Source of the DNA: an uncultured Pseudomonadales bacterium
Lineage (GTDB): Bacteria; Patescibacteriota; Microgenomatia; UBA1400; PJMF01
Reading direction: 5' to 3'
Assembly: GCA_964620965.1 (NCBI GenBank)
Contig: CAZUHV010000003.1
Coordinates: 162,093-226,092, forward strand
DNA: 64,000 bases
Shown: one piece after another, positions 2,933 through 33,839 of the stretch
Layout of the letters: each line of letters starts with the position of its first letter
How positions within the stretch are numbered: position 1 is the first letter of the stretch
Translations under genes and position numbers: made by a program
The notes under the pieces: generated by a model
What the model was told of the DNA's origin: nothing
Databases searched by the model: none
What the model saw: only the letters and a program-made list of their open reading frames with translations

Positions 2933-4243
2933 ATGCTTCCCATGCTTACATATATTTACACAAAACTCCCTTCAGGATTACAAGTTATTAGAATTCCAAT
3001 GCCAGAGGTTAAATCAGTCACTGTTTTGGCTTTGGCAAACACGGGTTCAAGGTATGAAACTCCAAAAGAACAGGGTATTGCCCACTTTTTTGAGCACATT
3101 GTTTTTAAAGGAACAAAAAATTACCCTGATGCGCAAGTTTTGGCTGGTGCAATCGATGCAATTGGAGCAGACTTTAATGCTTTTACCAGTAAAGAATACA
3201 CAGGATACTATGTTAAATCAGCAAGTGAACATATTACAACCTCTTTAGATGTTGTTTCAGACATGTTGTTAGCTCCAAAGATACTTCAAGAAGATATAGA
3301 TCGAGAAAAAAATGTCATTATTGAAGAAATAAATATGTACGAAGATACTCCAATGCGTCAAATTGGAAATCTTTTTGAAGGTTTGGTTTATGACGGATCC
3401 GGTTTAGGACATGATATTTTAGGTACAAAAGAAACTGTTTCTAGTATTAAAAGTGCAGATTTTAGAAAATTTTTAAAGAAATGGTATGGCTTGGGGAATC
3501 TAGTTTTGATTGTTTCTGGAGATGCAAGCATTGTTGAATCAGATAGGACTTTAGATTTAATAAAAAAATACTTTAGCAAAGACGCTGGTGAAAGAGAAGT
3601 TAATCGAGTTGATACAAAAGCAATTGCAGACAAAGAACTCAAACTCTCTCAAGAAAAACTATTGGTTACTTACAAAAAAACAGAACAAGCACATTTGTGT
3701 ATGGGGTGGCTTGGTCTCGAAAGAGAAGACGACAGAAGATATGCCCTTACGTTATTGAGTACAGTTCTTGGTGCAAACATGAGCTCCAGACTTTTTACTG
3801 AAATCAGAGAGAAACGTGGGCTTTGTTACTATGTGCATTCCGACACTGATTTTTACCACAACACAGGAATTTTCGGAGCTTCAGCAGGTGTTGATCCAAG
3901 TAGAATTGAAGAAGCAATTACTGTAATGCTCGAGGAATTTTATAGCCTCATAGATGGAACTAAACCAGTTACAGCAGAAGAGCTTAAAAAAGCAAAAGAC
4001 TATGTCGCTGGATCAATGGTTTTGGGGTTAGAGGATTCCAGAAGTGTTGCTCAGTTTTTTGGAATGAAACAGTTACTCTCAGGAGAAATAAAATCTCCAA
4101 CAGAGGTTTTGACGGAGTTTGAGAAAGTCACTTTGAAAGAAGTTAACGATATTGCAAAAGAGTTAATTAAGAAAGGTGAGTGTAGATTGGCTGTGATTGG
4201 GCCTTACAAAGAAAAAAAGAAGTTTGCTGATTTGATCAAGTAA
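2933..4243 (+). CDS. M16 (pitrilysin/insulinase) family zinc peptidase
   Basis: Inverted zinc motif HFFEH-IVFKGT (HxxEH) near the N-terminus; length is typical of M16B. GAGG lies 5 nt upstream of the ATG. Confidence 0.8.
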   Translation: MLPMLTYIYTKLPSGLQVIRIPMPEVKSVTVLALANTGSRYETPKEQGIAHFFEHIVFKGTKNYPDAQVLAGAIDAIGADFNAFTSKEYTGYYVKSASEHITTSLDVVSDMLLAPKILQEDIDREKNVIIEEINMYEDTPMRQIGNLFEGLVYDGSGLGHDILGTKETVSSIKSADFRKFLKKWYGLGNLVLIVSGDASIVESDRTLDLIKKYFSKDAGEREVNRVDTKAIADKELKLSQEKLLVTYKKTEQAHLCMGWLGLEREDDRRYALTLLSTVLGANMSSRLFTEIREKRGLCYYVHSDTDFYHNTGIFGASAGVDPSRIEEAITVMLEEFYSLIDGTKPVTAEELKKAKDYVAGSMVLGLEDSRSVAQFFGMKQLLSGEIKSPTEVLTEFEKVTLKEVNDIAKELIKKGECRLAVIGPYKEKKKFADLIK

Positions 4244-4328
4244 TGATACTCGAAAAATGATAAAATAGTCTTTCTATCATACATAATAAATTTAGTAAAT
4301 TAAAAGTATAAAGTATAAAAAGGAAATT

Positions 4329-4811
4329 ATGAAAACAGCACGAACAGCAGTTTTAGTTAAGCCAGATGGCTTACAAAGAGGATTGATTGGAGAAATTATC
4401 TCAAGATTCGAGAGAAAAGGTCTTAAATTGATTGGCCTTAAAATGCTTAACATGTCTGATGAACAACTCTCAGATTGGTATGCAGAACATAAAGACAAAA
4501 GTTTCTTTGGAGATCTCAAGTCTTTCATGGGTTCTATGCCAATTGTTGCTATGGTCTGGGAAGGTATTGATGCAGTTCCAGTCGTAAGAAAACTCGTTGG
4601 AACTACTCTTGGTAGAGAAGCAGAAGGTGGATCTATTCGAGGTGACTTTGGAATGAGCCAACAGTTTAATCTTATTCATGCCTCAGCAAATGGGGATGAT
4701 GCAGAACGAGAAATCAAGATAGTTTTTGAAGATGCAGAACTTTTTGACTATGTAGGCGTTATGGACACTGTTATCTATGCAGACTATGAGCTTGCTAAGA
4801 TGAAAGAGTAA
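4329..4811 (+). CDS. ndk: Nucleoside diphosphate kinase
   Basis: NDK fold motifs (VLVKPDG, NLIHASAN active-site His region). AAAAGGAAA RBS. Confidence 0.9.
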   Translation: MKTARTAVLVKPDGLQRGLIGEIISRFERKGLKLIGLKMLNMSDEQLSDWYAEHKDKSFFGDLKSFMGSMPIVAMVWEGIDAVPVVRKLVGTTLGREAEGGSIRGDFGMSQQFNLIHASANGDDAEREIKIVFEDAELFDYVGVMDTVIYADYELAKMKE

Positions 4812-4855
4812 TAAATGTTGCTAAGTTTTTTAACTTGCTAAATTTAGTTTTAAAA

Positions 4856-4890
4856 TCAAAAATCGCTCGAGTAAAATTGGGCGATTTTTT
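4856..4890. terminator. Bidirectional rho-independent terminator between ndk and tRNA-Arg
   Basis: AAAATCGC-loop-GCGATTTT hairpin flanked by an A-run and a T-run. Confidence 0.6.
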
Positions 4891-4909
4891 GTATTTCTTA
4901 CAAAATTTG

Positions 4910-4981
4910 TGCCCCCACCAGGAATCGAACCTGAAGTTGCCGCTTAGGAGGCGGCCGTTTTATCCATTGAACTATAGGGGC
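4910..4981 (-). tRNA. tRNA-Arg (anticodon CCT)
   Basis: The reverse complement folds as a cloverleaf: GCCCCTA acceptor, GTTCGATTC T-arm, and anticodon loop CUCCUAA giving CCT. CCA is not encoded. Confidence 0.85.
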
Positions 4982-5155
4982 GTTATAGCTAGTGTTTTCT
5001 CAAACAGTTTTATTACACATTGCGGAATCACTTTTTGCAATGCGATAATAGCTGTACGCTACAAGGTATTCTACCAAACATGCCTGGCATATTAAATACA
5101 CATAGGTTTTTTTAGCTTATGCTGATACTATGTGCAGTGGTCAGAAGGGGAGAAT

Positions 5156-6376
5156 ATGGTTCGTACAACGAAAAAAACTGTAAGAAAACCTAAAAAAGTG
5201 GGTGGGGCTGTTCCTTCAAAAAATCAAAAAAAAAGCCCTAATAAAAAAGTTCCTGCAAACGCCCGTATCAAGGCACAGACTCCAAAAGATAGAACTCAAC
5301 TTAATTCAATTTACCTTTCTTCAGTGTTTGTAAGGCCAGATGAAACGCCTTTTTGGGAATTTTTGAAGAACGCGAACATTCCATTTTTTAAGAAACATTT
5401 CCCATTTTTAACAAACAACCAGATTCCTCAAATAAAGCAGGTTTTTGATTTTTCTGACTATATACGCATCGGATCGCGTGGAGAGGCTCTTTCGTACCTA
5501 TACAACGGCTTTGGCAAGGCATTAAACTATGTTGGTCCAGTCTTAGATCTTGAGTTAGAGCATGGTTTTAATGATCACACTGATCGCCACACGCTTTGGG
5601 TAACTCAGACAGGTGTTGAGCTGTTGCAAAGAGCTGGGATTTCTTATGATGGATCTGGGCATTATGATCCGTTAACAGAAACAATGATGACTTTAGTTGG
5701 TATGACCCATGATTTGGGTAATTTTTTCTCTAGAAAAGAACATTCAACATATAGCGCTTGGTTGCTTACCAGGCTATTTTCAAACACTAAAAAACATCCA
5801 AAAGAGTTTGAAACTGTATTACATTCAATTTTATTTCACGAAGAACCAACTTTAGTGAATCTGGGAATGAATATCGAGGACGGCACACCACTACAGTGGG
5901 CTTTGGTTGCTGCAGATAAGATGCATGTTGGCAGAGATAGAGTGGGAGGGCGTTCATTTGAGAGTGGAATTGCTAAAGGTGCACTCGAGGATGATATTCA
6001 TATTGTTTTAAATGCGTTAGTCGTTCGATCTAGCTGGCATTTGGGAGTTCGTAAGTTTGTTTGGAACCTTGATTTTAGTGTGGATCAACTTGAGGAAAAA
6101 TTTGAAAGTTTTACAACAGGCAATCAAAGGTTATATCTTCCAAAGTTTTTCCAGAAAATGTTTATTAGTAAGGGAACCTTATATCGAGAGTCATTCTCGA
6201 AATTATTTACTGATATTTATAAAAATCGTATTGAATTGGCGGCGAAATGTGTGTTTTTACTATTTCCTCATATTTCTGAATTTGTTGTCGAGTTGTCAGA
6301 CAATGATACAAGGGCAAAAGTGGGTAGTGGCAGGATGACAGTGGTGACTTTAACGAGAAAACAAGTATTTCTTTAG
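5156..6376 (+). CDS. Hypothetical protein with a Lys-rich N-terminal tail and a possible HD-domain phosphohydrolase core
   Basis: Start moved to MVRTTKK, which has AGGGGAG 5 nt upstream. H...DH...HD (MTHDLG) spacing resembles an HD domain but is unverified. Confidence 0.45.
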   Translation: MVRTTKKTVRKPKKVGGAVPSKNQKKSPNKKVPANARIKAQTPKDRTQLNSIYLSSVFVRPDETPFWEFLKNANIPFFKKHFPFLTNNQIPQIKQVFDFSDYIRIGSRGEALSYLYNGFGKALNYVGPVLDLELEHGFNDHTDRHTLWVTQTGVELLQRAGISYDGSGHYDPLTETMMTLVGMTHDLGNFFSRKEHSTYSAWLLTRLFSNTKKHPKEFETVLHSILFHEEPTLVNLGMNIEDGTPLQWALVAADKMHVGRDRVGGRSFESGIAKGALEDDIHIVLNALVVRSSWHLGVRKFVWNLDFSVDQLEEKFESFTTGNQRLYLPKFFQKMFISKGTLYRESFSKLFTDIYKNRIELAAKCVFLLFPHISEFVVELSDNDTRAKVGSGRMTVVTLTRKQVFL

Positions 6377-7727: not shown

Positions 7728-7769
7728 ACAGGTATTATAGACTTAATAAAAGCTAAAGACTAGAGCAGT

Positions 7770-26377: not shown

Positions 26378-26998
26378 TTAAACTTTCTTTACTTGTAAAA
26401 AGTCGAGTGTAACTGGAGTTTCTCGGCCGAAAATATTAACTAACACTTCAACTTGACCTTTTTCTTCATCAATAGAGTTAACGGTTCCCAAAAAGTCATT
26501 AAATGGACCATCAACGATTTTGACAGCTTCACCTTCTGAGTAATCAGCCTTGTATGAAGGAGCAGCTTGTGTCATGTATTTTCTAATTGCTTCAACTTCG
26601 TGTTTTGGAAGTGGAGTTGGTTTATTTCCAACACCAACAAATCCGGTGACACCCTGAGTTGTTCTAACTGCTAACCAAGAATTGTCGGTAAGTTCCATTT
26701 GAACGAGCATGTATCCTGGAAAAATTTTCTCAGTAACATTTTTTCTTTGGCCACGTTTAATTTGGATTTTTTCTTGGGTAGGAATCAAAACAGAAATGAT
26801 TTTGTCGGTTAAGTCTAAGGTTTCTGCACGTTGTTTTAGTGCTTCTGCGACCTTGTTTTCATGACCAGAATAAGTGTGAACAACATACCAACGAGCTTTT
26901 CTGTTTTCAGTGTTAGAGATAATAACAAGGTTAGGGGTTTGTACCTTAACTTCTTGAACCTCTGGAGCTTCTAGTGGTTGTTGCATTTGGTCTGTCAT
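26378..26998 (-). CDS. nusG: Transcription termination/antitermination factor NusG with an N-terminal extension of about 30 aa
   Basis: NGN domain (WYVVHTYSGHENKV) and C-terminal KOW (GEAVKIVDGPFNDFLGTV). Confidence 0.85.
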   Translation of the reverse strand: MTDQMQQPLEAPEVQEVKVQTPNLVIISNTENRKARWYVVHTYSGHENKVAEALKQRAETLDLTDKIISVLIPTQEKIQIKRGQRKNVTEKIFPGYMLVQMELTDNSWLAVRTTQGVTGFVGVGNKPTPLPKHEVEAIRKYMTQAAPSYKADYSEGEAVKIVDGPFNDFLGTVNSIDEEKGQVEVLVNIFGRETPVTLDFLQVKKV

Positions 26999-27045: not shown

Positions 27046-27225
27046 TTATAAAACTGCGGACAACAATTTTTGAAAGACTGTGTCGAGTAGTGCTATGTAT
27101 AAGCCAATTGCGATACTAACACCAATAACAAGGAGTGTCATATCTTGAGTTTGTTTTCTTGTAGGCCAAGTAACTTTCTTGGTTTCTCTCACAACTTCTT
27201 GAATGAAATTGACTGGACTTAGCAT
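27046..27225 (-). CDS. secE: Preprotein translocase subunit SecE (59 aa)
   Basis: Not in the ORF track. The hand translation MLSPVNFIQEVVRETKKVTWPTRKQTQDMTLLVIGVSIAIGLYIALLDTVFQKLLSAVL has the typical SecE KVTWPTRKE motif plus a single TM helix. Position upstream of nusG fits. Confidence 0.75.
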   Translation of the reverse strand: MLSPVNFIQEVVRETKKVTWPTRKQTQDMTLLVIGVSIAIGLYIALLDTVFQKLLSAVL

Positions 27226-27239
27226 AGGCAGGTATTGTA

Positions 27240-29021
27240 TCAGGCTTTAGGTTGATTTTCAAGCGTTTTTAATAATTCTTTAGCTTTTTCTGATCCCTGA
27301 GGGGTACCTGGCTTTACAGCATAGGTTTGTACATCGATCTTCCTATCCTCAGTATGTGGATGGTATGTAACTGAACTACCAGGCTTTCTAAGTTTACTCA
27401 TAACTGCAAAGAGTATAGAGAGGACCAAAAGCAAAATGCCGACTAAGATAATAAAGAATGGAAGTTTTGATTCTGGATTTTGAATGAGGTTTTTAACCAG
27501 TCCCCAGAGTGTTTCGTCTGCCTCGTAGGAATCATCATATACTTTTTTCTCTACAAGCGCATTACCTTGCTCATTAAACTCAGTTGCATTTTCTACAGTC
27601 TTATCACCTTTGAGTGGAGTGTCAGAGTCTGCAACTTCTGCAGCATTGCTTGCATCAGTAACTTTATTTGAGTATGCATTAGAAACAGTTTCTTGAGTTG
27701 TTGCGCTACAAGAGGTGCTACTAACATTTGTTGCTAAACGGCATTGTCCCTCATAACAGCGTAAGTTAACTGCACAGTCTCTATTCGTAGAACAGGTTTC
27801 ATTACAGCTTTGAATAACGGCAGCTGTTTGTTGGGCAGTTGGGTTGGCACAACGATAATCTTGAGGGTTTTGAGGGTTTCTACAAAAGCTTTCATAGCAG
27901 GTTAAACCAGCAACACATTCAGAATTGCTTGTACAGTATTGGTTACAGCTTCGTAATGTAGTTTGTGTTGTTCCTGAACCAGTATCACTAGAGCCTCCAC
28001 CATTGTTCCCACCTCCAGTATTGCCACTAGATTCTTGGCAAGAAGAACTGCTTGGATTTATAGCAAGTCTACATAGTTTTTGGCCTCCAGTTGCATAGCA
28101 GCGCATGCCAACTTCACAGTCTCTGTTACTGGTACAGGTTTCGTTACATCCTTGTACTGGTGGAACAGTAGGTGTTGGGGTAGGAGATGGAGTTATTGTT
28201 GGAGTAGGGGTAGGTGTCCCAGATGGAGGAGGCGTTGTTCCAGGATTATTTGCACAAGTTGTGCCATTCCAACATTTACTTGCTCCACAATCACAACTGT
28301 CTGTGAGTACGTCAAGACAGGCTTGTTCTGAGACCAATGACCAACAGTTGTCTGCACAGCTATTTGGGAATTCTTTCCATGTTCCTCCAGAATTTTTACA
28401 TGCGGTTTGAGTATCAGAACCTGTAGAACCGGTTATTTCATATTCAAGCCCAGTTGGAACAGTTAATTGGACAGCAAGGTTTAAGGTATCTGCATAGGTT
28501 CTGTCTGGATCGAAAGTAATTTGGAGTTTACCAGGTTTTCTTGGAACCAGTTTAAGTCTAATAAGCGATTTATCTGATGGTTCAACGAGCCAATCTAAAT
28601 TATTTTTAACTGCTGTGACTTTAACTAAATATCCATCAGAAATTTTCTGAACTTCAATTTCTTTTGCATCAAAACCAGATCCTTGATTTACAATTACCTC
28701 TGGGGTATCTAGGTCTTTATTTGTTATGTTAAAAACTGCATATACGTGTGTAAAAGTATAATTAGCACTATTGAGGTTAAAGGCAACTTCTCCAGTTTTA
28801 TTAACTTCAAATTTTGTCCTTAGTTCTGCAGATATACCAGGTTTAGCAACAGTATCAGCAGTTTTAGCTTCACTTCTTGTATCCTGAGAAGTTTCTAGAG
28901 GTTTTTGGATAAATAAGAGTCCAATGATACCTGCTGCAACTAATAAAGCTCCGATATATGGAACTAAGTTTTTAAAATTTTCTAGGAGTGTTTGAAATAC
29001 TGAATTTGCTTTTTTCATCAA
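27240..29021 (-). CDS. Cell-surface protein: N-terminal signal anchor, beta-rich domain, Pro/Thr linker, three tandem six-Cys modules, C-terminal TM anchor
   Basis: TPTPTPTITPSPTPTPT linker; three copies of CN(E/Q)xC(T/S)xN(R/S)(D/E)C...RCY...C; hydrophobic C-terminal helix plus a basic tail. It lies 14 nt upstream of secE. Confidence 0.6.
   Translation of the reverse strand: MMKKANSVFQTLLENFKNLVPYIGALLVAAGIIGLLFIQKPLETSQDTRSEAKTADTVAKPGISAELRTKFEVNKTGEVAFNLNSANYTFTHVYAVFNITNKDLDTPEVIVNQGSGFDAKEIEVQKISDGYLVKVTAVKNNLDWLVEPSDKSLIRLKLVPRKPGKLQITFDPDRTYADTLNLAVQLTVPTGLEYEITGSTGSDTQTACKNSGGTWKEFPNSCADNCWSLVSEQACLDVLTDSCDCGASKCWNGTTCANNPGTTPPPSGTPTPTPTITPSPTPTPTVPPVQGCNETCTSNRDCEVGMRCYATGGQKLCRLAINPSSSSCQESSGNTGGGNNGGGSSDTGSGTTQTTLRSCNQYCTSNSECVAGLTCYESFCRNPQNPQDYRCANPTAQQTAAVIQSCNETCSTNRDCAVNLRCYEGQCRLATNVSSTSCSATTQETVSNAYSNKVTDASNAAEVADSDTPLKGDKTVENATEFNEQGNALVEKKVYDDSYEADETLWGLVKNLIQNPESKLPFFIILVGILLLVLSILFAVMSKLRKPGSSVTYHPHTEDRKIDVQTYAVKPGTPQGSEKAKELLKTLENQPKA
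27711..28148 (-). repeat. Three tandem coding repeats (about 35-45 aa, six-Cys modules) inside the surface-protein gene
   Basis: Protein-level repeats at residues about 292-328, 359-391 and 406-437. Confidence 0.5.
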
Positions 29022-29175
29022 TACTTTAGTATAGACATATTTTTATATTCAAGCAATATGTTTCTTAAGGCTAAACTTGGGTACTACATTAAATATGAAA
29101 AAGTATGAAGATTTTTTGCTGTGTGATACACTAGTGATACATGTATTGTATAAATCAAATAGATTTAAGGGAGAC

Positions 29176-30594: not shown

Positions 30595-30666
30595 GCCCAG
30601 ATAGTTCAGTGGCAGAACGCTTTCTTGGTAAGAAAGAGGTCGAGGGTCCGATTCCCTCTCTGGGCT
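30595..30666 (+). tRNA. tRNA-Thr (anticodon GGT)
   Basis: Cloverleaf: GCCCAGA acceptor, anticodon loop UUGGUAA, GGTCCGATTCC T-arm. Confidence 0.85.
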
Positions 30667-30734
30667 CAAGGTATCTTAATGATATAATAATTGCGCATGA
30701 AATTGTGTGTGAACTACATTTAACAAGTAAATAA

Positions 30735-30816
30735 GCCGAGTTACCCAAGCGGTCAACGGGGGCAGACTGTAAATCTGCTGACATAGTCTTCGGAGGTTCG
30801 AATCCTTCACTCGGCA
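30735..30816 (+). tRNA. tRNA-Tyr (anticodon GTA), type II with a long variable arm
   Basis: GCCGAGT acceptor, anticodon loop CUGUAAA, 13-nt variable arm, GGTTCGAATCC T-arm. Confidence 0.85.
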
Positions 30817-30820
30817 CAAT

Positions 30821-30893
30821 GCCACCTTAGCTCATTCGGTAGAGCATCTGTTTTGTAACCAGAAGGTGCGGGGTTCGAATCCCCGAGGTGGCT
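30821..30893 (+). tRNA. tRNA-Thr (anticodon TGT)
   Basis: GCCACCT acceptor, anticodon loop UUUGUAA (one mismatch at the 31-39 pair), GGTTCGAATCC T-arm. It starts 4 nt after tRNA-Tyr. Confidence 0.7.
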
Positions 30894-31013
30894 CAATCGA
30901 TTGGTTTTTAATAAGCGTTAGTTACAACGCCTAAAATTCTAAAAAAATTTGAACTCGCCCACATTGACAAGTTCTGATATAATACCAGTCTTGATTAAAA
31001 GAAAGAAATTACT

Positions 31014-31220
31014 ATGGCAGCAAAAAAGAAAAAAGGTCCACGCCAAATAACAGGTTTACAATGTAGCGTTTGTAAAGCTTTTGGATATGTTACCGAATAC
31101 AACAAAAATAATGAAATTTTAATGAAACAAACAAAAAATGTTTCAACTTTTCCATTAAGCAAGTACTGTAAAGTTTGTAAAAAACATACAGATCACAAAC
31201 AAATGAAGAAATTAAAATAA
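31014..31220 (+). CDS. rpmG: 50S ribosomal protein L33 (zinc-ribbon type)
   Basis: Two CxxC pairs (CSVC...CKVC) and the C-terminal KYCKVCKKHTDHKQ L33 pattern. Promoter-like TTGACA/TATAAT lie upstream. Confidence 0.75.
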   Translation: MAAKKKKGPRQITGLQCSVCKAFGYVTEYNKNNEILMKQTKNVSTFPLSKYCKVCKKHTDHKQMKKLK

Positions 31221-33754: not shown

Positions 33755-33825
33755 AGGGCCGTAATGTAATGGTAGCATTAGTGTCTCCAAAACACTCCGT
33801 GGGGGTTCAAATCCCTCCGGCCCTG
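33755..33825 (+). tRNA. tRNA-Trp (anticodon CCA)
   Basis: AGGGCCG/CGGCCCT acceptor, anticodon loop CUCCAAA, GGTTCAAATCC T-arm. Confidence 0.85.
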
Positions 33826-33839
33826 CAAAATGAAAAAGT

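Follow-up and report, generated by a model that had tools for sequence, protein, structure and literature searches.

A Patescibacterial surface protein with a predicted cohesin fold and three six-cysteine modules, encoded in many related loci beside dockerin-tailed proteins

We analyzed a gene for a cysteine-rich surface protein that lies on the minus strand (27240..29021) of a 64,000-nucleotide stretch of DNA, here called the window, from an uncultured bacterium placed in the Patescibacteriota (contig CAZUHV010000003.1, positions 162,093 to 226,092). Counted from a TTG at 29021 to the TGA stop at 27240–27242, the open reading frame (ORF) encodes 593 residues; its second codon is an ATG (29018) that would yield 592. 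This ATG is the probable true start, because the alignment of P0001, a 98% identical homolog of 592 residues (one fewer than the window ORF), begins MKK... at that position, as do other homologs. Downstream on the same strand follow secE (27046..27225), nusG (26378..26998), rplK, and rplA, and the distance from the stop codon of the surface-protein gene to the ATG of secE is exactly 14 nt, as a first-pass annotation of this DNA had stated.

Hydropathy analysis gives two hydrophobic helices, at residues ~19–40 and ~520–543, the second followed by KLRK, and the N terminus is rich in lysine. The protein contains 26 cysteines, eight at residues 208–256 and the others in three groups of six. The ORF, the hydropathy profile, and the cysteine spacing confirm the general layout given in the first-pass annotation, which had described a 593-residue ORF with an N-terminal anchor, a Pro/Thr linker, three six-cysteine (six-Cys) modules, and a C-terminal transmembrane helix with a basic tail. 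Its view of the product as a disulfide-rich, membrane-anchored extracellular protein of a Candidate Phyla Radiation (CPR) bacterium is likewise supported, with disulfides presumably forming within the cysteine modules.

The N-terminal hydrophobic helix (residues 19–40; 28902..28967, on the minus strand like every feature of the gene) was assigned from hydropathy and extends over residues 7–43 in the structure model; it represents a signal anchor or, if cleavage takes place, the h-region of a signal peptide. It is followed by the motif PLETSQDTRSEA (residues 41–52; 28866..28901), a candidate processing site in which Arg49 is nearly invariant and Ala52 is invariant. Next comes a cohesin-like beta-sandwich (residues 60–200; 28422..28844), delimited by an AlphaFold2 model and Foldseek, and then an eight-cysteine (8-Cys) module (residues 205–258; 28248..28409) that had not been singled out before; it is an optional insert at a site where other members of the family carry other domains. 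A Pro/Thr-rich linker (residues 259–289; 28155..28247), modeled at a predicted local distance difference test (pLDDT) score below 50, contains the sequence TTPPPSGTPTPTPTITPSPTPTPTVPP at residues 262–288, ahead of the first six-Cys group. Module 1 (residues 292–328; 28038..28148) has the cysteine spacing C3C5C5C8C10C and forms a beta-hairpin in the model, and modules 2 (residues 359–391; 27849..27947) and 3 (residues 406–438; 27708..27806) both have the spacing C3C5C5C4C10C, module 2 with a CRNPxNP signature and module 3 as the most conserved segment of the protein. The modules had been called three tandem repeats; their number stands, but they are serial rather than strictly tandem, being separated by linkers of 30 and 14 residues. 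An acidic, Ser/Thr-rich low-complexity spacer (residues 439–519; 27465..27707; pLDDT <50 at residues 441–504) leads to the C-terminal transmembrane anchor (residues 520–543; 27393..27464), identified by hydropathy and in the model, and to a cytoplasmic tail (residues 544–593; 27243..27392), placed by alignment and model, with the C-terminal helix KELLKTLENQPKA.

A word-indexed search recovered 45 relatives of the surface protein, and an exhaustive search of 1.84 billion cluster representatives recovered 796 family clusters at E ≤1e-3 and 79 at E ≤1e-30. The sole name given to the family by any source is "hypothetical protein, Candidatus Woesebacteria," and the genome records that hold relatives are almost all titled Patescibacteria or Woesebacteria. 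A number of loci (L006, L007, L009, L011, L016, L017, L019, L020, L023, L025, and L026) are titled "uncultured Pseudomonadales bacterium," though their NusG proteins are 73 to 93% identical to that of the window; such titles on Patescibacteria contigs are probably a labeling artifact. Comparison of the whole protein, each module, the 8-Cys region, and the beta-domain with Pfam, NCBIfam, and the sequences of the PDB gave no match above threshold. When the six-Cys pattern and the QDxRxxA motif were sought in the other ORFs of the window, they were found in no gene but this one, and base composition gives no sign of foreign origin.

Family members commonly share one order of parts: an N-terminal hydrophobic helix, a Q-D-x-R-x-x-A motif, the beta-domain, a variable insert, the linker, three modules, a spacer, the transmembrane helix, and a tail. 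The insert site receives different domains, a CARDB domain in P0062 and an unclassified domain of ~140 residues in P0028 and P0034. The disordered spacer after module 3 has a median length of 80 residues across the family, and the low-complexity cytoplasmic tail has a median of 106 residues and a range of 1 to 292. Exactly three modules with essentially fixed spacing are present in 132 of the 176 proteins collected, and all 18 module cysteines are invariant in an alignment of 15 homologs. In the 176-protein set, the signatures of modules 1, 2, and 3 read CNesCssN..C..N.rCy...CRLaTNvsS..C, CNqyCad..ECa.GltC....CRnP.Np.s.sC, and Cn..C.sN.dCa.NlRCy.g.CRLAtNPsStsC, respectively. Compared with distant members, the window protein has a fractional identity of 0.47, 0.48, and 0.65 in the three modules, 0.20 in the beta-domain, and 0.11 in the tail. 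The gene is usually single-copy, syntenic, and found throughout the clade, a distribution that looks more like that of a housekeeping surface platform than of a lineage-specific adhesin.

We examined the beta-domain with an AlphaFold2 model computed on a 32-sequence alignment, in which residues 60–200 were modeled at a pLDDT of ~90. The best 21 Foldseek matches to this domain in the PDB are all cohesins, including 2jh2 (E 3.4e-7), 2vo8, CaCohA2, OlpA, and 1g1k, with a probability of 1.00 and template modeling scores of 0.5 to 0.72 normalized to the target. A cohesin jelly-roll fold is predicted with high confidence on the basis of this model, and the beta-rich region that the first-pass annotation had placed after the anchor is thus borne out, at residues 60–200. 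This fold and the dockerin genes of related loci, the chief clues to function, had gone unnoticed there. A profile of the domain run against a collection of 5.8 billion proteins found one extra protein only.

The gene directly upstream of the family gene, on the same strand, ends in a two-repeat type I dockerin in 15 of 31 related loci, a count made with a hidden Markov model (HMM) built on the neighbor dockerins. Three neighbors outside its training set (L021, L035, and L036) are matched by this HMM at E values of 7e-25 to 4e-20, and that of L036 also carries a precomputed Dockerin_1 match. Wherever a related locus has an additional gene separating the family gene from the divergent NTP-transferase gene, the additional gene encodes a secreted dockerin-tailed protein. 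Eight of 13 scanned neighbors pass the Pfam gathering score for Dockerin_1 (L010, L011, L015, L020, L022, L023, L024, and L025), and the remaining five score 18.7 to 22.7 bits against a cut-off of 22.9. Dockerin is the only Pfam domain in 12 of the 13; the neighbor in L015 adds sub-threshold EF-hand/FG-GAP matches in the same region. In L021, dockerin-tailed genes flank the family gene on both sides.

As a side observation, the segment 2116–8274 of L021 encodes a dockerin protein, the family gene, and two further dockerin-tailed ORFs, one of which (downstream) includes a SASA carbohydrate-esterase domain. Upstream in the same locus is a gene for an O-antigen-ligase-like membrane protein (Wzy_C), and we read a similar membrane-protein ORF at the same place in L019.

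Domains are also shared between the family and its dockerin-tailed neighbors. The protein P0142 combines the same leader, the cohesin-like domain, and the 8-Cys module with a fused dockerin (Pfam E 1e-15). A cargo domain of ~140 residues, present in the dockerin neighbors of L018, L020, L023, L025, and L026, is homologous to family inserts (blastp E 1e-17 to 2e-31), and its homolog sits between the cohesin-like domain and the modules in P0028, P0034, P0062, P0079, P0101, P0109, P0129, P0139, and P0154; the cargo of the L010 neighbor likewise matches the insert of P0108, P0140, P0124, and P0132. Family proteins with a dockerin neighbor are without a fused copy of the cargo, and at the P0034 locus a fused copy is present and there is no dockerin gene. 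Because dockerin genes adjoin the family gene, the P0142 fusion exists, and cargo is shared in cis and in trans, a cohesin–dockerin pairing is the most economical reading of the fold, the adjacency, and the domain sharing, and we infer that the family head physically binds dockerins.

The 8-Cys module is present in 12 of 154 family proteins, namely the window protein and 11 others. It also occurs independently of the family in other proteins, some of which carry dockerins (P0142 and P0156, by Pfam, and P0150, by motif only). Like the cargo domain above, it is fused in one setting, the window protein, and dockerin-tagged in another, P0156. The module is mobile and matches no Pfam family. Its pattern, GGxWxxFxNxCxDxC...C...T..CDCG...CW.G..C, is seen alone, in two to three copies, or with dockerins in other secreted proteins, and its carriers include P0089, P0142, P0150, P0156, P0167, P0173, and P0176.

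Two short motifs mark the ends of the protein. The leader motif, in the form Q-[DE]-x-R-x-x-A and located 5 to 12 residues past the N-terminal hydrophobic helix, is common to many unrelated secreted proteins of the clade; it is also seen in the N termini of P0044, P0089, P0142, and P0156 and in the upstream proteins of L010, L011, and L026, dockerin proteins included. Possibly it acts as a signal for processing or sorting that is specific to this lineage. At or near the C terminus, the motif SSM[LMI]xR[ILM]KxKG[IVL] is found in 97 of 154 members, these being the distant ones, and the tail of the window subclade ends (27243–27290) in KELLKTLENQxK[DA] in its place. The conserved tail-end motif suggests a cytoplasmic partner.

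For the six-Cys modules, we modeled residues 286–445 (mean pLDDT 74.7), and each module was predicted to form a short beta-hairpin. Foldseek with this three-module model found nothing significant, the best match being the N-terminal region of Dkk4 at an E value of 0.094; most of the 45 matches listed are knottins, with root-mean-square deviations mostly of 0.4 to 3.4 Å over 19 to 36 columns and all with E ≥0.09. Profiles of the modules matched the Dumpy DPY module 1oig at E values of 6.8e-5 and 2.2e-3 over 22 residues, the kissper domain of kiwellins at 0.02 to 0.05 with five cysteines in register, and inhibitor cystine knot conotoxins at 0.06 to 0.7. Pfam matches of the modules to CarbpepA_inh, Dumpy_DPY, Dickkopf_N, and DUF7107 all fall under the gathering score; for Dumpy_DPY (PF21164), the scores are 12.7 to 18.3 bits against a threshold of 27 bits, and seven of 32 members match this model at E <0.01 (best E 7e-4).

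These HMM and structure searches gave no curated domain above threshold, in agreement with the earlier statement that the repeat matches no recognized domain. The EGF/defensin-like spacing proposed at the same time did not hold up: Pfam returned no EGF or defensin family even at E values up to 10, and we rejected that identity for lack of any family match, the weak likenesses being instead to Dumpy DPY, kissper, and knottins. We take the consensus spacing of knottins to be CX3-7CX3-6CX0-5CX1-4CX4-13C. Modules 2 and 3 (3,5,5,4,10) fit this spacing, but module 1, with a fourth loop of 8 residues, does not, and the same is true of paralogous modules, whose loops have 8 and 6 or 6 and 9 residues.

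Single modules outside the family are known from one locus only, L029. A Woesebacteria metagenome-assembled genome (MAG), the one holding L027, encodes an 800-residue protein with 10 tandem six-Cys modules (C3C5C8C6C10C) and a 693-residue protein with two. Their genes are adjacent at L029 (1168–3249 for the 693-residue protein and 3338–5740 for the 800-residue protein), and the 693-residue protein also matches the MG10 domain of bacterial alpha-2-macroglobulin. In both L029 proteins, the modules stand just ahead of a C-terminal ELPATGPEDW and a hydrophobic segment, an LPXTG-like arrangement without a basic tail. A 43-column profile of the module gave no candidates in the 5.8-billion-protein collection. 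Because the module also precedes an LPATG-type anchor signal in these two other surface proteins, it behaves as a mobile, anchor-proximal stalk unit whose third and fourth loops are variable.

From the observed arrangement of parts, the predicted fold, the pattern of conservation, and the dockerin proteins that are encoded next door and share domains with the family, we favor, with moderate confidence, a docking platform that is anchored in the membrane and has one cohesin-like module at its core. The protein would be exported through its N-terminal hydrophobic leader, possibly with cleavage near the invariant Ala52, and its C-terminal helix would keep it in the membrane and leave a short tail in the cytoplasm. 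The membrane-distal cohesin-like sandwich would then bind the dockerin tails of secreted proteins, so that exchangeable cargo is displayed at the cell surface. A wall-proximal stalk, made up of the Pro/Thr linker, the three knottin-like modules locked by disulfides, and the disordered spacer, would carry the head across the cell envelope or anchor it there. In the window protein, the 8-Cys module, found elsewhere on dockerin-tagged proteins, would be fused in cis at the usual insertion site.

A bolder version of this docking platform we regard as tentative and would sooner expect to fail than to hold. It would be a clade-wide, single-cohesin plug-and-socket display peculiar to Microgenomates-type Patescibacteria, with a transmembrane anchor and an invariant triple-cysteine stalk, a new knottin-like domain family of bacteria that needs oxidative folding in a presumably anaerobic organism; its conserved tail-end motif would connect exchangeable cargo, whether fused or tagged with a dockerin, to a partner inside the cell, and the whole would underlie envelope decoration or partner-cell attachment rather than cellulose degradation.

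Several results weigh against a docking platform. Neither the window protein (searched to an E value of 10) nor the isolated domain nor any one of the 32 members matched the Cohesin family (PF00963), and a profile of the domain run against the PDB sequences matched no cohesin, so that the cohesin assignment rests on the predicted fold. The 64-kb window contains no dockerin gene by regular-expression search or with the HMM from the neighbor dockerins, and the closest relatives of the window locus are also without an adjacent one. Finally, among the folded parts of the protein, conservation is lowest in the cohesin-like domain, at 20% identity to distant members, and highest in the cysteine modules, at 47 to 65%; because of this pattern, the essential function may sit in the modules and not in the head.

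The same pattern favors an envelope tether, in which the cysteine modules, the transmembrane helix, and the cytoplasmic motif would connect the cell wall or S-layer with a partner in the cytoplasm, the modules would bind wall or glycan, and the head would be a secondary, exchangeable decoration. Conservation of the modules extends to non-cysteine residues (CN, CR, and N), and 97 of 154 members keep the C-terminal motif. Over a broad clade the gene is generally present as a single copy at one fixed position, and modules adjoin the anchor in other surface proteins too. We nevertheless consider a tether of this kind unlikely as the main explanation, in that no similarity to known wall-binding domains (LysM, SLH, or hevein) was found and the dockerin genes next door are left unexplained. 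It is compatible with the docking platform and not exclusive of it.

CPR bacteria are often episymbionts, and the first-pass annotation had proposed host or partner attachment, a possible role. As a direct adhesin, the protein would use its modules or its variable head to bind a surface structure of another organism. It is extracellular and presumably disulfide-stabilized, its head is diverging rapidly, and a single site accepts variable domains (CARDB in P0062 and the ~140-residue domain in P0028 and P0034). Yet the gene is usually single-copy, syntenic, and clade-wide, unlike those of typical adhesins, the supposedly adhesive modules are nearly invariant rather than diversifying, and no similarity to known adhesin domains was seen; we judge a direct adhesin quite improbable. 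Less probable still, and in our view very unlikely, is a transmembrane sensor that would bind a ligand with its ectodomain and signal through the conserved motif in its tail. Such a role would suit the topology of the protein, which is bitopic or a hairpin in the membrane and has a short conserved motif on the cytoplasmic side, but Pfam and NCBIfam show no kinase, HTH, anti-sigma, or other signaling domain, and the tail is mostly low-complexity and very variable in length (1–292 residues).

The position of the gene next to secE bears on how it is expressed. In a sample of 29 loci, of which L004 and L009 are duplicates of L003, 27 show the order of a divergent NTP-transferase gene, the family gene, secE, nusG, rplK, and rplA; the order is also kept down to 28% family-protein identity and in further loci. 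Exceptions are L014, L033, and L035, with other genes between the family gene and secE, and L021 and L034, where the family gene is not beside secE. All 25 related loci examined, drawn from L001–L028, have an extended −10 element 8 to 9 nt ahead of the ATG of secE; in 22 it reads TGnTACAAT, and three have TGATAGAAT or TGGTATACT, with TAGAAT or TATACT as the hexamer. Often a −35-like hexamer is present 17 nt upstream of this element, and conservation is absent from the remainder of the gap, which is 14 to 1971 nt long. In the window, the secE promoter (27234..27262, minus strand) comprises a −35 element TTGAAA (27262–27257), a 17-nt spacer, and a −10 element TACAAT (27239–27234), with 8 nt to the ATG at 27225. 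It overlaps the surface-protein gene, its TG being part of the TGA stop (27242–27241) and its −35 element lying inside Leu-Glu-Asn codons, and it is the best promoter-like site of the window region. No Shine–Dalgarno sequence precedes secE; because the −10 element sits only 8 to 9 nt before the ATG, the secE(-nusG-rplKA) mRNA is probably leaderless or nearly so.

The surface-protein gene has a putative promoter of its own (29028..29056, minus strand), with a −35 element TTGCTT (29056–29051), a 17-nt spacer, and a −10 element TATACT (29033–29028) 9 nt before the ATG at 29018, which implies a leaderless mRNA here as well; a TATACT box lies 8 to 10 nt before the start in L001, L002, L005, L008, L027, and L028. 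The gene had been placed at the head of the secE-nusG-rplKA operon. Because secE has its own conserved promoter, we regard it instead as a neighbor of that operon: the two look like adjacent transcription units. A terminator of the gene's own, which by the first-pass annotation would have counted against a shared operon, was looked for and none was found in the gap of the window, so read-through is possible; a terminator-like hairpin is present in one of 20 related gaps. That the protein is an accessory factor of the Sec translocon or of transcription and translation, coupled to secE-nusG-rplKA by co-transcription, is extremely unlikely: its gene does lie directly upstream of secE in the 27 loci and in further ones, with no terminator in the gap, but both genes appear to have promoters of their own, the loci listed above interrupt or lack the adjacency, and we rejected the interpretation for want of any match to Sec components.

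Elsewhere in the window, a TAnnAT box stands 6 to 9 nt before the start of about nine other genes, including those starting at 7742(−), 37242(−), 40681(−), 48024(+), 52122(+), 53769(−), 61460(−), and 62604(+), and a Shine–Dalgarno-like sequence precedes only about 10 of 55 long ORFs; this genome may produce many leaderless mRNAs. On the opposite strand, ~2 kb from secE, lie genes for tRNA-Thr, tRNA-Tyr, tRNA-Thr, and rpmG (30595–31220 (+)), with tRNA-Trp further on (33755–33826 (+)). The region looks like a rearranged form of the classical tRNA-tuf-rpmG-secE-nusG order with the NTP-transferase and surface-protein genes in between, and an Rfam scan found tRNAs only. The nusG-rplK junction holds inserts in some loci, a Fic gene in L033 (7458–9585), a BrnT/CopG toxin–antitoxin pair in L036 (6735–7813), and three unannotated genes in L032 (5721–8032).

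To our knowledge, almost nothing is known of how CPR/Patescibacteria build and decorate their cell surface, the presumed basis of their dependence on other cells, and we found nothing in the literature specific to cohesin–dockerin systems or cysteine-rich surface proteins in Patescibacteria or to leaderless mRNAs in CPR bacteria. The locus described here pairs a conserved, usually single-copy membrane protein bearing a predicted cohesin-type socket with dockerin-tagged neighbors, and both the family and its cohesin-like domain are unrecognized by current domain libraries. What is new is a probable cohesin–dockerin variant that sequence libraries do not recognize, without an SLH or sortase anchor and with an uncatalogued six-Cys extracellular module. 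If the docking platform is correct, it would extend cohesin–dockerin systems to a transmembrane-anchored, non-cellulolytic format, and the locus offers a testable handle in the form of defined binding pairs, an anchor, and cargo domains. As a by-product, the secE-nusG-rplKA operon of these bacteria appears to begin at a conserved leaderless promoter.

Among known cysteine-rich folds, the modules resemble knottins such as EETI-II, MCoTI, hanatoxin, the conotoxin tx9a, and potato carboxypeptidase inhibitor in placing six cysteines in ~33 residues around a beta-hairpin and in their weak CarbpepA_inh matches. They differ in giving no significant match (Foldseek best E 0.094), in being parts of a large membrane protein rather than free peptides, and in that loops 3 and 4 lengthen to 8 and to 6 to 9 residues in paralogous modules. 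With the DPY module of Dumpy (PF21164, 1oig), they share a core C-x5-C-x5-C-x4-C-R-x-P and a conserved Asn that align over 22 residues, but DPY spans only four of the six cysteine positions, and all Pfam scores stay under the 27-bit gathering score. Dumpy is an insect matrix protein in which DPY modules alternate with EGF modules in a tension-bearing extracellular tether. The kissper domain of plant kiwellins (4pmk, 4x9u) has its five N-terminal cysteines in register with those of the modules, sCN..C.....C.....C....C, and its sixth presumably also follows after 10 residues. Unlike the modules, kissper is a single N-terminal domain on a double-psi beta-barrel, and the match reaches an E value of only 0.02 to 0.05. 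Kissper has been described as a motif of 40 residues with six cysteines and three disulfides that resembles toxins and EGF-like motifs, and no kiwellins were found in bacteria (PMC9813671).

For the protein as a whole, the closest comparators are the anchoring scaffoldins of cellulosomes (OlpA, OlpB, and SdbA of C. thermocellum) together with the non-cellulosomal cohesin modules of C. perfringens (2jh2, 2vo8, and 2o4e). In contrast to scaffoldins, the family has a single cohesin that is not recognizable by sequence, and its anchor is a transmembrane helix with a 50-residue cytoplasmic tail, with no SLH match and no LPXTG in the window protein. Its stalk consists of three six-Cys modules, its host is a small-genome Patescibacterium, and most of the cargo on its dockerin neighbors matches no Pfam family, glycoside hydrolases included. 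Like the anchoring scaffoldins, however, it is a surface protein with a module of predicted cohesin fold, a Pro/Thr linker between that module and the anchor, and dockerin-bearing secreted proteins encoded near its genes.

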